This document shows, in pieces, positions 25,205 to 62,753 of a DNA stretch of 64,000 nucleotides. The position numbers were made by a program, and so were the translations under genes. The stretch is from an uncultured Candidatus Rokubacteria bacterium (GTDB lineage: Bacteria > Methylomirabilota > Methylomirabilia > Rokubacteriales > DASRDR01). The notes under the pieces are model-generated. The model worked only from the letters and a program-made list of their open reading frames with translations, was not told the DNA's origin and did no database searches. The number at the start of each line of letters is the position of its first letter. The first letter of the stretch is position 1. The stretch covers positions 288,001 through 352,000 of the forward strand of contig CAWDVE010000019.1 in NCBI GenBank assembly GCA_963805625.1. Direction: 5' to 3'.

Positions 25205-25220
25205 CGCAAGACGGGTGCCA
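25205..25220 (-). promoter_or_regulatory. sigma54 -24/-12 promoter for the nxr operon
   Basis: minus strand TGGCACCCGTCTTGCG. Confidence 0.85.
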
Positions 25221-25292
25221 CGGTGCACGCACAGAAAGTGCCCGGCGAGAGGGGGCGGCGGCCACCCTCGTGCGAGGAGCCTCATGAGGTCG

Positions 25293-25330
25293 TGGGGCAA
25301 CGATGACGCGGGTGGGGCGTCACCGCCCCA
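25293..25330. promoter_or_regulatory. Tandem upstream activator sites (TGGGGCG-N4-CGCCCCA)
   Basis: perfect TGGGGCGTCACCGCCCCA 25313-25330; weak copy TGGGGCAACGATGACGCG 25293-25310. Confidence 0.8.
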
Positions 25331-25432
25331 TCGTCGCGTGCATCGGCCGGTTCGGAAGGACGTGTGTTACCGGCCCTGGCTCGCCTGCTGCTCGGGTCTT
25401 ACCGTCTCCCTCGCTCAGGTAGGCGGACCAAG

Positions 25433-26374
25433 CTAGGTGGATCCGGGGGAGGGCGGGGCGCTCGGAGGGTCCGAGAAGCCTTGCTCAGGACCGTGTCCGG
25501 CCAGGACTTGCGCGACGAGCCCCCGGAGCTCGCCCACGCTGAACGGCTTCGCGAGGAAAGCCGCCGCTCCGGCTTTGCGAGCCTGATGGGCCGTCTCCGT
25601 GGACCCGTACCCGGTGACGATGACAACCGGGACGTGAGGTGCGACCTGCCGCGCCCGGGTAAGGAGCGTCAGCCCGTCCATCCCGGGCATGCGCAAGTCG
25701 GCGAGGATCAGATCGAGGAGCCGACCGCGGACCAGGGCCAACGCCTCCTCGCCGCCGGTCGCGGTCAGGGAGTCGTGCCCGCTCAACCGAAGAATGCGGA
25801 CGCAGGTCTCCAGCATGTCGGGATCGTCGTCGACGATCAGGATCGTCCGTCGGCCGGCGCGACGCGCCTCCATGCGAGGCGCAAGGGTCCGGACGAATTC
25901 GGCAAGATCGGACGCACCCAGCCGCTCTGCCATCGTTGCGAGCTTCCCGAGGTGCCCTCCTGGGGCGGGGAGGAACGGGCCGGGATCGCGGTCGCGAGGG
26001 ACCGCCCCAACGAGGTCCGCCAGCGCCCGACTGGCTTCTGATGTTTCGATCGCGATCGCCGCCGCCAATGCGTCCGCACTCGAGCTGATCCCGCGCTCGA
26101 TCCGCTGCCGGTGCTGTCGGATCTCCTGGAGCGCGGCCGCCAGGGGTGCGGCTGGGAGCGCCGGCAGGCTGGCGAGGAGCCCCTCGGCGAGCAGAGATCC
26201 CTGGAGGCCGCGCACCCAGCTCGCGTGCTGGCGCTCCTCCTCCGCCAGGTCCGACCAGAGAGCGCGCAGCTCCGGCGGATCGGCGGAGCGGCGGGCGAGC
26301 CCCTCGTAGAAGGCCGCCGTCTCGGTCTCGATCTCGAGGAGGAGCGCGATCGACCGCACGAGCTCGGTGATCAT
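25433..26374 (-). CDS. Ferritin/rubrerythrin-like domain fused to a receiver domain
   Basis: E..AAFY...LAEEERQH (ExxH) N-domain; ILIVDDD, ADLRMPGMDG, LAKPF receiver. Confidence 0.75.
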   Translation of the reverse strand: MITELVRSIALLLEIETETAAFYEGLARRSADPPELRALWSDLAEEERQHASWVRGLQGSLLAEGLLASLPALPAAPLAAALQEIRQHRQRIERGISSSADALAAAIAIETSEASRALADLVGAVPRDRDPGPFLPAPGGHLGKLATMAERLGASDLAEFVRTLAPRMEARRAGRRTILIVDDDPDMLETCVRILRLSGHDSLTATGGEEALALVRGRLLDLILADLRMPGMDGLTLLTRARQVAPHVPVVIVTGYGSTETAHQARKAGAAAFLAKPFSVGELRGLVAQVLAGHGPEQGFSDPPSAPPSPGST

Positions 26375-26546
26375 CCGATTGCGAGCAAGTCGTCCGATGG
26401 GGCGGTTGACGACGAGGGACGTGGCAAGGGAGGCTCCTGCCGCCTAGGGCCGCACGCGACGGGCCTGGCGGCGCCCGCCAGGCCGCCCGCCCTCGAACCG
26501 CGCGCCACGCGCGCGAGCCGCTCGAGCCCGGTGGCCCCGCTCGCGG

Positions 26547-27251
26547 TCACACCGATGGCACCGGCCGTCGCCGATCTCTGGCCAGGCGCTCGGCCCGTTC
26601 CTTGATGCCGAGGAGCATGCGGCGCTCCATGACGAAGTGCGCGGGCTCCCAGAAGAGGTAATGCGCGAGGCGACCCCAGGGGCCGGCGCCCCGGCTTCGG
26701 ACGATCAGCCGCGTGGCGCATTCGCCTCGCGGCTCCAGCACGAAGGCGCCCCATCCCTCCAGCACCAGTGCCCGGTTGGGCTCGATCGCCAGGACCTTCC
26801 AGCCGGCCACGGCGGCGAGGCGGCCGCCGAGCATGTCGGGGGGCGCCGACGGGATGAAGTCCCCCGGACTCAGGCGCTGGTGCTCCGGGAGGATTGTCCG
26901 TGCGGAGCGGTAGCCCGGGGTGCCACGCAGGAGCCGCACGAACAGGTTCTCGAGCCCGTCGTAGCTGTAGAAGCCGCCTCGGCCATAGCCGATCTGTACC
27001 AGCCACGGCCACACGTCCTCGACCGGCGCCCTGATCGTGACGGCGCGGGTCGACCCGACGGCCGAATCCTTCGCGAGGTCGTCACCGGGCAGGCCTCGCG
27101 TGACCTCCTCGTCCGTGGCGCCCCAGCGAAGATACCAGGGGCGTGCGACGAGGGCGAACGCGGCTCCCGCCGCACCGGCCGTCACCAGGCCTCGGAGCGC
27201 GCGCGCAACCGGTCGTGGGCTCGCGGCGTCTGGGACGAGAACTGCCCGCAT
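26547..27251 (-). CDS. SRPBCC-like protein with N-terminal hydrophobic segment
   Basis: [59 protein letters not shown]; start uncertain. Confidence 0.7.
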
Positions 27252-27260
27252 GCCTGGGAA

Positions 27261-61185: not shown

Positions 61186-62132
61186 GCCCGCGCCGGTGGC
61201 GTCACCAAGTCCACATGCGGGCGCCGTCGACATGAGCGAGCCCGGGCTCGACGAGGGAGCCTCACGCGGAGCCCATGGCACTCCACTTCCCGACCGCGGA
61301 CGACACGCTGACCGGCGAGCGGGCCCTGCGTCTCCGTGACGACCGTGTCCTGCCCTTCTCGATGATCGTGGTCGTAGTGGTAGACCACCACCCAGTCGTG
61401 GGTGCGATCGAGCTCGTGAGCGCGCGCGGTGTTCGAGTAGAGTGCGGTGAAATGCCATCGCCCCCGATGCGTGTGGAGCACGGGCAGCCAGGGCTTTCCC
61501 TCGGGGTTGAACCTTCGGGGTGCGATCATCCGCAGTTCGCCCGCTGCGGCTTTCTCTCGGTACTCGCGATCGACGTCGAGCAGCATCGCCACCCCCGGGC
61601 CAGTCGGTTCGTGATGGACCGTCCGTGTCGAACCGAGCAGGCTCTGCAGCGCGCCGCGGATCGCTGCGGCGCGGCGGGCGCCGATTCCCGGCACCGCCTC
61701 GAGGCGCCCGTCATGTGCAGCGATCTCGAGGCCTTCCAACGTGTCGATGCCCAGCGTGTCGTGGATGCGGTGGGCAAGGCCGGGGCCGATACCGGGGACC
61801 GTCTGGAAGACACGCACCGGATCGAGCGTGCCCCGGAGCCGCTCCAGCTGGCTCCACCGGCCGGTTCGCAGCATCTCGACGATCGCCGCGGCGATGCCTT
61901 GGCCGACGTGGGGTAGCGCGAGCAGCCCCTCCACGCCCTCTCCCTCGAGGACCTGCCGGAGATCGCGATCCGCGTGCGCGACGGGGTCCGCCGCCCGACG
62001 ATACGCGGACACGCGAAACGGATTCGCCCCCTGCTGGGCGAGGAGATCGGCGACTTGGCGAAGCTTGGCCGCGATTCCCTGATTCACCGACGGCAATGCG
62101 GGCGCGTGCGACGGTTCGGGTCCGGGCGTCAT
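61182..62132 (-). CDS. PolX-N-terminal-like helix-hairpin-helix protein with uncharacterised C-domain
   Basis: ANPFRVSAYRRAA, VPGIGP, VPGIGARR; C-domain PRRFNP..WLPVLH..FTALYSNTARAH..DWVVVY. Confidence 0.8.
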   Translation of the reverse strand: MTPGPEPSHAPALPSVNQGIAAKLRQVADLLAQQGANPFRVSAYRRAADPVAHADRDLRQVLEGEGVEGLLALPHVGQGIAAAIVEMLRTGRWSQLERLRGTLDPVRVFQTVPGIGPGLAHRIHDTLGIDTLEGLEIAAHDGRLEAVPGIGARRAAAIRGALQSLLGSTRTVHHEPTGPGVAMLLDVDREYREKAAAGELRMIAPRRFNPEGKPWLPVLHTHRGRWHFTALYSNTARAHELDRTHDWVVVYHYDHDHREGQDTVVTETQGPLAGQRVVRGREVECHGLRVRLPRRARARSCRRRPHVDLVTPPARA

Positions 62133-62491
62133 CAGAACGCGAGCTTCCCCGCTCGCAGCTGCGCCCGCGGACTTCCACCTCCGCGCACCTCGTGGGTGCC
62201 ACGATCCCAGACAACCACTGGGCCAGCGTCGTACTGCCCGGGCGGGATGATCCCCTGGAAGCCGATGTACTCCACGGGATGGTCGGGCACTCTCACTGCG
62301 AGCCGTCGCTCGGCAGGGTTCATGGAGGGGCCCTTGGGCACGGCCCACGACGTGAGCACGCCGCCGAGCTCGAGCCGGAAGTCGTAATGCAGGCGGGATG
62401 CCTTGTGCTCGTGGACTACGAAGCGCCCCCGTACGACGCGGTCGGTCTGCCGTTCGCTCCGGCTTGCGCGCCCGGTGTCAGCGCCGCACAT
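62132..62491 (-). CDS. LigD 3'-phosphoesterase domain, stand-alone and apparently C-terminally truncated
   Basis: [41 protein letters not shown]; ends at GKLAF; start uncertain. Confidence 0.75.
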
Positions 62492-62570
62492 AGACCCAGA
62501 CGATCACCGCGGCGACTAGCACGACGACGGCGGCCACGATCGCCCACTGATCCTGAATGGCCTCGACCAT
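62478..62570 (-). CDS. 30-aa single-TM microprotein (not in ORF track)
   Basis: [43 protein letters not shown]; first ORF after a sigma54 box. Confidence 0.7.
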
Positions 62571-62626
62571 CGGTATCCTCCTCGCTCCGCTCGAAGCGGG
62601 CCGGCGAGCTCATGTGCCGACCACCC

Positions 62627-62642
62627 TGCATCGCGAGTGCCA
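62627..62642 (-). promoter_or_regulatory. sigma54 -24/-12 promoter
   Basis: minus strand TGGCACTCGCGATGCA. Confidence 0.75.
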
Positions 62643-62715
62643 GCTTGGGCCCGCGGTGGCAGCCACGCGCGGCTCGGAGTCGCCCGGCATCGTCCACGGT
62701 CGGATGTGCCCCTGC

Positions 62716-62753
62716 TGCCCTGCTCGTGCCCCACGTGGGGCGGGCAGGCCCCA
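62716..62753. promoter_or_regulatory. Tandem upstream activator sites
   Basis: TGGGGCGGGCAGGCCCCA 62736-62753; half site TGCCCCA ending 62733. Confidence 0.75.

Follow-up and report, generated by a model that had tools for sequence, protein, structure and literature searches.

A conserved, predicted sigma-54 regulon with paired palindromic sites in an uncultured Rokubacterium

DosR of Mycobacterium tuberculosis is a LuxR-type regulator which acts on sigma-70-family promoters and receives its input from a heme sensor. The lxa locus of Burkholderia cenocepacia carries an Fnr/Anr-type motif, TGA-N6-TCA (PMC5309233, PMC3721108). NmpR, of the NmpRSTU system of Myxococcus xanthus, has the site GCGCA-N5-TGCGC, with 14-15 nt between sites, at seven promoters (PMC11841059), and regulons of 12 operons at most are reported for the activators of Desulfovibrio vulgaris (PMC4641369). 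We analysed a stretch of 64,000 nucleotides (hereafter the window; positions 288,001 to 352,000 of contig CAWDVE010000019.1, assembly GCA_963805625.1) from an uncultured Candidatus Rokubacteria bacterium, in which an original prediction had paired sigma-54 promoters (-24/-12 boxes) with a tandem palindrome, to be read by the activator encoded at 42471-43853. Our results point to a conserved, apparently undescribed sigma-54 regulon of Methylomirabilota, which we regard as real and whose predicted mechanism is the textbook one.

Sigma-54 boxes and palindromic sites

The sequence TGGCAY-N5-WTGC has exactly 10 perfect matches in the window, each at a position already given by the original prediction, and two further boxes, at 37504 and 56804, depart from it by one base; all 12 run in the sense orientation towards the next gene (Table 1). 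The count of twelve boxes was therefore right, but the split is ten perfect and two variant boxes rather than eleven and one, and the box at 28324 ends at 28339, one base earlier than first given. The palindromes were found as well, although TGGGGCR-N4-YGCCCCA fits them better than the initial consensus TGGGGCG-N4-CGCCCCA. Measured against the former, mismatches number zero at 25313, 40307 and 48313, one at 27419, 37598, 37618, 56899 and 62736, two at 50740 and 60316, and three at 34800. As had been proposed, they lie ahead of the boxes, 60-152 bp separating the palindrome centre from the -24 base, with the single palindrome at 40307 serving both divergent promoters, and the box at 28324 has none (best position weight matrix (PWM) score there, 2.7). 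A partner site at a distance of 19-20 bp, differing from the consensus by no more than 4 bases, accompanies 9 of the 10 principal sites, against a window background of 1.8%, which agrees with the strong-plus-weak pairing described at the outset; one perfect half-site is retained in 6 of the 9 partners. The principal site without a partner is the one at 34800, and orthologous promoters have perfect sites there. Between 2.4 and 18.8 kb, where no pairing had been seen, there are two 2-mismatch sites (5710, 11257) and no perfect box.

The 7.27-Mb genome contains 30 palindromes with one mismatch or fewer, 25 of which are non-coding, non-coding DNA making up 17.5% of the genome (genes were called with our own codon-score script, and starts and the coding/non-coding split are approximate). 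An outward sigma-54 box stands 50-190 bp away from 18 of the 30 copies, compared with 4.15% of random non-coding positions, and an inward box from none. The palindrome is thus not at the level expected in coding or random sequence, and scans of this genome and of its relatives both recovered its linkage to the box. Enrichment is confined to the N4 spacer, since N0-N3 and N5-N10 gave 0-3 box-linked hits each; among 209 permuted half-sites only four exceeded 3 such hits, all of them near-copies of the motif. When a matrix trained on the window sites alone was applied to the rest of the island and genome, a site was found at five of the six strong boxes of the island beyond the window, and at 8 of 81 elsewhere. 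Intergenic strong-box matches amount to 21 including one duplicate, that is, about 20 promoters. The regulon therefore extends past the window, to about C19:400 kb and onto other contigs, an extension that the original prediction had overlooked together with the kinase link and the IHF-like element described below (G, C, L and f numbers are our handles for genomes, contigs, loci and families).

Site-to-promoter distances up to 125 bp group at 60-61, 68-72, 81-82 and 101-105, and show a 10.5-bp periodicity (R=0.79, 16 of 20 distances used, p about 5e-5). In 40 loci chosen by the activator alone, a site lies upstream of 36 of 59 boxes and downstream of none. Orthologous promoters retain site and box while their flanks diverge, and in lower-GC families the palindrome takes the form TGRGRCA-N4-TGYCYCA. 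The genome encodes RpoN (TIGR02395, 441 bits, cut-off 277). We conclude that the palindrome is almost certainly a genuine sigma-54 enhancer, as predicted from these patterns.

Upstream of the box, at a distance of 17-30 bp, there is often an A/T-rich element resembling a site for integration host factor (IHF), and the genome has three HU/IHF genes. The IHF consensus is YAA-N4-TTGATW; within 2 mismatches, it is matched in 27 of 110 regulon promoters, against 3.4 in shuffles. A variant, YAA-N5-YGAWT, is found in 39 of the 110, but it was defined on the same data, and for this reason only the canonical count was used. Among assembled RNA contigs with shares of 0.06-0.10, those over hsp20 (X1, X2, X5, X9) end at 48188-48193, a point 20-25 nt into the transcript whose predicted start is about 48212; they were not counted, because assembled contigs cannot show starts.

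Candidate activator, sensor kinase and rival explanations

As about 40 sigma-54-activator matches were found in the genome, comparative tests were needed to name the reader of the palindrome. The protein encoded at 42471-43853 is the only one of them within the 95-kb island, and its GAFTGA motif, Walker A/B, arginine-finger region and helix-turn-helix (HTH) are all intact. We counted composites (palindrome plus sigma-54 promoter), in a strict and a relaxed pattern, in genomes with and without an ortholog, defined by E<=1e-135, a cut-off chosen after the scores were seen. Among relatives, strict composites occur in 22 of 25 that have an ortholog and in 2 of 15 that do not; the corresponding figures are 58 of 79 and 9 of 66 for genomes of the same order, and 63 of 104 and 10 of 96 for genomes of the phylum. 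The p-values of these comparisons are overstated because the genomes are kin. With the relaxed pattern, in other orders, families lacking the ortholog (f6, f7, f12) gave 0 of 19, f8 11 of 12 and f13 7 of 19. Four of the 10 phylum exceptions, which have a composite and no ortholog, possess a full HTH, two a fragment at a contig end and four nothing, the HTH-profile rescue having covered 30 of 200 genomes. The recognition helix hardly varies among 14 orthologs, and the orthologs form one clade (SH-aLRT 99%, quick tree of 60 rows), and the motif was absent from all 18 loci of activators with a similar HTH (41-48% identity) in the phylum of G041. Having passed these co-occurrence tests, the local activator is the best candidate, as had been supposed, and very likely reads the palindrome.

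Four loci of f13 (L123, L124, L126, L127) have kept the activator and lost the nearby targets and sites, which suggests decay or rewiring of the regulon.

The likely cognate sensor is the kinase encoded at 50546-48936. All PDB matches of its PAS domain are heme-PAS proteins (FG214, FixL, DosP), and it retains the positions of FG214 His156 (the proximal ligand), His159 and Met172; a single-sequence structure model of the domain was unusable (pLDDT 37). Of 39 activator loci, 23 contain a homologous kinase core, which in 17 of them lies directly upstream, and heme-PAS kinases adjoin the activator in two orders (L012, L020, L128-L131, L141). The targets overlap the hypoxia-induced lxa/DosR sets (universal stress proteins (USPs), alpha-crystallin, PfkB, cation ATPase) and those of NmpR (CBS, USP, microaerobic oxidase). 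Judging from the heme-PAS domain and from this overlap, the input is quite probably low oxygen or a gas/redox signal. An 804-aa protein with a 57% identical heme-PAS signature (G000:C12:188986-191400) is a possible second sensor.

The account that we favour, and hold to be reasonably probable as a whole, is that the palindrome, in helical phase 60-150 bp upstream, would be the enhancer of activator 42471-43853, switched on by the heme-PAS kinase as oxygen or redox poise falls. The kinase would sense the gas or redox state through its heme-PAS domain and pass phosphate to D55 of the activator, dimers of which would occupy the strong site, load the weak one 19-20 bp off by cooperative binding, and form a hexamer. 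With the DNA bent by IHF or an IHF-like protein at its element, GAFTGA would contact sigma-54, and ATP hydrolysis would open the promoter. About 20 promoters would then fire, yielding USPs, CBS proteins, Hsp20, a ribosome-hibernation factor, a ba3-type oxidase, an enzyme of the nitrite oxidoreductase (NXR) type and nitrite reductase. The operon of the activator itself would be among the targets, a positive feedback, and the receiver proteins induced along with it would serve as phosphate sinks, a role suggested by a first-helix motif in common, seen by eye; by overall receiver scores, the receiver proteins of the island are not closest to the receiver of the activator.

Several observations weigh against this account, besides the kinship of the genomes and the late choice of the cut-off. 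As many as 41 of the 104 ortholog-bearing genomes have no strict composite, and in f13, with 13 orthologs in 19 genomes, composites number 0 strict and 7 relaxed. No ortholog was detected, even with the HTH profile, in the motif-positive G013, G079, G189 and G197, and G013 retains a perfect site adjoining a different activator. Sigma-54 promoters outside the regulon match the IHF-like element too (12 of 99), and of the 12 window promoters only 2 match it well. As for the kinase, it is encoded 5 kb from the activator on the opposite strand, its PAS domain has Leu in place of the distal Arg220 of FixL and lacks the distal His175 of FG214, and the heme signature is present in only 12 of the 23 linked kinases, the rest carrying non-heme PAS or membrane domains.

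These last points bear on the best surviving alternative, in which enhancer and activator are the same but respond to something other than oxygen, such as nitric oxide, carbon monoxide, energy or redox state, or growth arrest, by way of lineage-specific sensors plugged into one conserved output. The 11 linked kinases devoid of the heme signature, several of them with membrane or other PAS domains, fit such a scheme, as do the missing distal Arg, which stabilises O2 in FixL, and the description of FG214, the closest structure, as a redox switch (10.64898/2026.03.15.711900); moreover, USP, CBS, Hsp20 and hibernation-factor genes are general stress genes. We nevertheless think it rather unlikely, as heme-PAS kinases stand beside the activator in two orders and respiratory targets (ba3-type oxidase, NXR-type enzyme) recur, single loci adding a hemerythrin-like and a HemA-like gene (labels by eye).

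It is improbable, to a greater degree, that the enhancer is read, alone or jointly, by another of the roughly 40 activators: the ZraR-like protein at C10:225467, the GAF-type one at C17:773980, or an NtrC-, FlbD- or NmpR-like protein. Palindrome sites do occur near the ZraR-like locus (C10:222726) and near C17:773980, the latter type of site being kept in G013, which has no ortholog of the local activator, and the core GGCR-N4-YGCC matches the DVU1063 motif. However, the ZraR-like protein occurs in 45 of 200 genomes but in none of 9 same-genus relatives, 7 of which carry the motif. In family f7, 13 of 16 genomes encode it and 0 of 16 show a composite, and its own target promoter carries a different motif, TCGAC/GTCGA. 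No N4 palindrome stands at glnA of this genome. The proteins resembling NmpR fall into a clade of their own, and a search of the genome for a protoglobin gave nothing.

Lastly, that the palindrome is not a protein site at all, but a repetitive extragenic palindromic (REP)-like repeat, a terminator hairpin, a stem arising by chance in GC-rich DNA or a side effect of neighbouring NtrC half-sites, is very hard to credit. In favour of this view, the sequence can fold into a hairpin of 6-7 bp (-8 to -13 kcal/mol), under the strict test 12 of the 30 genomic copies lack a box, and 36 of 102 composite matches across GTDB are glnA promoters of Achromobacter and kin where the palindrome overlaps NtrC-type sites. 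Against it, the palindrome has no T-tract, its N4 spacer is fixed in length and free in sequence, it lies between divergent genes, the one-sided box link, helical phasing, conservation amid diverged flanks and lower-GC form reported above stand against a repeat or terminator, and when parsed in NtrC geometry (N3 junction) only 1 of 9 matches has a box.

Target genes and taxonomic range

Table 1. Predicted features of the window (box, sigma-54 -24/-12 box; positions count from the first letter of the window)
Feature	Position	Strand	Details and basis
Target operon: Nitrospira/anammox-type nitrite oxidoreductase alpha (25145-21681), beta, EB_dh-type subunit, NarJ-like chaperone	18831..25145	-	PDB 7b04, Pfam
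Box of nxrA-like operon	25205..25220	-	perfect match, PWM 17.4
Enhancer pair	25293..25330		perfect 25313-25330 + weak 25293-25310, offset 20
Receiver-domain protein, N-terminal ExxH helical domain	25433..26374	-	ferritin/rubrerythrin-like by eye
Box before 27185-26547 and receiver protein	27261..27276	-	perfect match
Enhancer pair	27400..27436		27419-27436 (1 mismatch) + 27400-27417; another weak site at 27357
Box before CBS gene 28232-27774	28324..28339	-	no enhancer site
Inferred operon: ba3-type oxidase (small subunit 34647-34540, COX2, COX1), acyl-CoA synthetase, nrfH, nrfA-family	28364..34647	-	short same-strand gaps
Box, ba3 oxidase operon	34685..34700	-	perfect match
Weak lone enhancer site	34800..34817		3 mismatches
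Target operon: USP, CBS, CBS, formate/nitrite channel	35019..37453	-	Pfam
Variant box	37504..37519	-	GGGCAT...TTGC
Enhancer pair, both strong	37598..37635		37598 + 37618, offset 20
Target operon: CBS protein, cytochrome c, two USPs	38360..40159	-	Pfam
Box	40218..40233	-	IHF-like element ~30 bp upstream
Enhancer pair common to divergent promoters	40288..40324		perfect 40307-40324 + weak 40288-40305
Box of receiver-AAA33-activator operon	40388..40403	+	autoregulation inferred
Stand-alone receiver protein (40429-40812) and phosphotransferase-AAA33 protein (40832-42397)	40429..42397	+	Pfam
REC-AAA+-HTH sigma-54 activator	42471..43853	+	D55, Walker A/B, GAFTGA at 43131-43148, HTH at 43767-43829
Target operon: Hsp20 (48165-47728), baeRF10 release-factor-family protein	46419..48165	-	Pfam
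Box of hsp20	48224..48239	-
Enhancer pair	48293..48330		perfect 48313-48330 + weak 48293-48310
PAS-GAF-HisKA-HATPase kinase, likely cognate sensor	48936..50546	-	PAS keeps H65 (proximal heme His), H68, M80
Enhancer pair	50720..50757		50740-50757 (2 mismatches) + 50720-50737
Box before second stand-alone receiver gene (end 51252)	50819..50834	+
Variant box before CBS gene 56756-56328	56804..56819	-	TTGCAC...TTGC
Enhancer pair	56880..56916		56899-56916 + 56880-56897
Box before USP 60221-59763 and phosphoenolpyruvate synthase	60249..60264	-
Enhancer pair	60316..60352		60316-60333 + 60335-60352
Box; first gene a 30-aa membrane peptide (62570-62478), then LigD phosphoesterase fragment	62627..62642	-
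Enhancer pair	62716..62753		62736-62753 + 62716-62733

The alpha subunit of the first operon is closer to NXR (PDB 7b04, E=4e-271) than to NarG (about 1e-40). The product of 40832-42397 is, we presume, Rv2004c-like. Past the window, up to about C19:400 kb, the island adds a ribosome-hibernation factor, a cation ATPase, PfkB, a BON protein, RtcB/archease, GroEL, nicotinate phosphoribosyltransferase and NAD synthase. The first gene behind 106 motif-bearing promoters of relatives encodes a USP in 18 cases, a CBS protein in 11, a receiver in 9, Hsp20 in 7, a ba3 oxidase in 7, a BirA-like protein in 4 and the hibernation factor in 3, and has no counterpart in this genome in 22. The proposed co-regulation of stress proteins, ba3-type oxidase and an NXR/Nar-type enzyme recurs in relatives. 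DNA repair, which had been included among the targets, found little support: a repair gene comes first behind none of the 106 promoters, and the same-genus genome G009 (L001) has neither PolX nor LigA nor the LigD fragment at the corresponding places. PolX does lie within 6 kb of a palindrome site in L028 and L097, and we consider a place for repair in the regulon weakly supported.

Among 29 nxrA loci elsewhere, nine have a box and a site 60-118 bp upstream, and four more a weak version, the thresholds (box score of at least 8, site score of at least 7) having both been read off the output. None of five nxrA loci from genomes without the activator has them, a contrast too small for significance alone.

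Some features of the window genes are reported for their own sake. Pfam gave no match for the N-terminal domain of the ExxH-type receiver protein (25433-26374), which may be a di-iron O2/NO-sensing module within the regulon. In the NrfA-family protein (28364-29674) the first heme motif is CXXCH, not CXXCK, and the score is under the NCBIfam NrfA cut-offs. Genes at 55312-56148, 45399-46406, 38360-38692 and 53340-53528 are shorter than those of relatives (a phosphorylase of 278 aa vs 564 aa, and 335 aa vs 436 aa in G009), by decay or assembly indels. An arsenic-resistance-like cluster (Acr3-type transporter, ArsC fragments, ArsR, flavoprotein, acetyltransferase, methyltransferase; labels by eye) occupies 10506-18799.

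An exact GTDB-wide scan for the composite returned 102 loci, of which 38 are titled Rokubacteria or Methylomirabilota, 13 uncultured bacterium, 36 are the glnA promoters already mentioned and 15 are others. Orthologs in records with the first two titles share 75-95% identity. At the Achromobacter glnA promoters (L024, L031, L099, others), TGGGGCA-N4-TGCCCCA overlaps the first of two NtrC-type sites, with an extra half-site between them, and by this arrangement they are look-alikes. A locus titled Gemmatimonadota (L044) has the activator at 91% identity and the hsp20 promoter, by transfer or mis-binning. In two proteobacterial genomes (L027:6001-6115, L075:6001-6097) palindrome and box precede what by eye is a tail-sheath-like gene, with a neighbouring activator of related HTH in L027.

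Other sites of the present genome were also recorded. At glnA (G000:C10, 784276) a sigma-54-like box is accompanied, in NtrC geometry, by TGCCCAC-N3-GTGGGCA, a candidate nitrogen-regulator site distinct from the palindrome. A perfect lone palindrome with a box precedes a porin-like gene adjoining a different, GAF-type activator (G000:C17:772926, L207), and is kept in G013. TCGAC/GTCGA repeats lie upstream of a sigma-54 promoter in several families (G000:C10 about 222860-222900, that is L202:3860-3900, and L215-L234), before a gene for a Met/Gly-rich periplasmic protein beside a ZraSR-like pair; they would be a second undescribed motif, probably the site of that ZraR-like activator.

On the analogies drawn above, the regulon is probably a low-oxygen, dormancy-type programme in many Rokubacteria. 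A bolder reading, which we offer tentatively and think doubtful, is that Methylomirabilota have a class-wide dormancy switch which is based on sigma-54 and evolved independently: a heme-PAS kinase and an activator clade still without a name would control a low-oxygen programme as large as that of DosR, including Nitrospira/anammox-type NXR, nitrite reductase and ba3 oxidase. If it were true, Rokubacterial NXR would be induced on oxygen exhaustion and be mainly a nitrate reductase, and these abundant soil bacteria would therefore be nitrate respirers, not the nitrite oxidisers that their nxr genes suggest. The motif at nine of the 29 other nxrA promoters offers a handle on the direction of NXR (nitrite oxidation versus nitrate reduction), and hence on the interpretation of nxr genes and transcripts from soil. 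In a floodplain preprint, nxrAB transcripts were taken as nitrification and Rokubacteria were listed as active, the two not being linked in the part available (10.1101/2020.05.14.086363). The main value of the analysis lies in a testable set of regulator, predicted binding motif, candidate sensor and targets for an abundant uncultured lineage, and in the prediction of a low-oxygen programme that includes Rokubacterial NXR.

Comparison with described systems

The motif had at first not been recognised as that of any described regulon. Our literature searches, of which RegPrecise, CollecTF, figure logos and the supplements of PMC4641369 were outside the scope, indeed found no description of it or of a sigma-54 regulon in Rokubacteria, and Methylomirabil, Rokubact and NC10 have 0 occurrences in PMC12316311. 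Its core, on the other hand, resembles the GGCA-N4-TGCC of DVU1063/FlbD (PMC3333781) and the half-sites of NtrC. With NtrC enhancers it also shares tandem dimer sites about two turns apart and about 100 bp from the promoter, but the TGGG...CCCA arms are longer here, and there are no flagellar or nitrogen-assimilation targets. By NCBIfam equivalog cut-offs the activator is neither NtrC (NR-I, 397.5 vs 558.6 bits) nor ZraR (368.6/760), AtoC (473.4/714) or FlbD (318.8/750); no palindrome was found at glnA or amtB, and reading the sites as 17-bp inverted repeats around N3 gave no enrichment.

The candidate sensor and the heme-PAS sensors FixL-FixJ, DosP and FG214 have in common the PAS fold and proximal His, with the His159 and Met172 positions of FG214 kept (10.64898/2026.03.15.711900). 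The kinase nevertheless scores 137.8 bits against a FixL cut-off of 850, and its presumed partner is a sigma-54 activator, not FixJ.

By gene content the island resembles the DosS/DosT-DosR and lxa sets, with clustered USPs, alpha-crystallin, PfkB, a cation P-type ATPase, nicotinate phosphoribosyltransferase and nitrogen-oxide genes, whereas the output here would go through sigma-54 (PMC5309233, PMC3721108). An Fnr/Anr control found no TTGAT-N4-ATCAA and one coding TTGA-N6-TCAA in the window; the DosR box was not searched for.

NmpR is alike in more respects: an activator of the NtrC type, sigma-54 promoters preceded by everted palindromes in pairs, a heme-containing sensor, autoregulation, and CBS, USP and microaerobic oxidase targets (PMC11841059). 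But the present system is not NmpR. Only 1 of 23 perfect genomic copies of GCGCA-N5-TGCGC has a box, as does 1 of 14 for the N5 form of the present motif, and PF11563 gave no match to a protoglobin kinase (NmpU) in this 99.9%-complete genome. Activators of L193 and L199, beside protoglobin kinases and NmpR-type sites, group apart in a quick tree, with 46% identity and a different recognition helix; they were taken as NmpR by synteny, not by name, and 9 of 11 NmpR-type loci, which held no activator, were left out. The predicted system would be a further case, after DosR, lxa and NmpR, of a hypoxia/dormancy gene set rewired to an unrelated regulator. It differs from NmpR by its GGGGCR-N4-YGCCCC site, by 1-2 nt between sites, by a heme-PAS-GAF kinase in place of a protoglobin phosphorelay and by its size (PMC11841059), its roughly 20 promoters also exceeding the maximum of 12 operons reported for an activator of D. 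vulgaris (PMC4641369).

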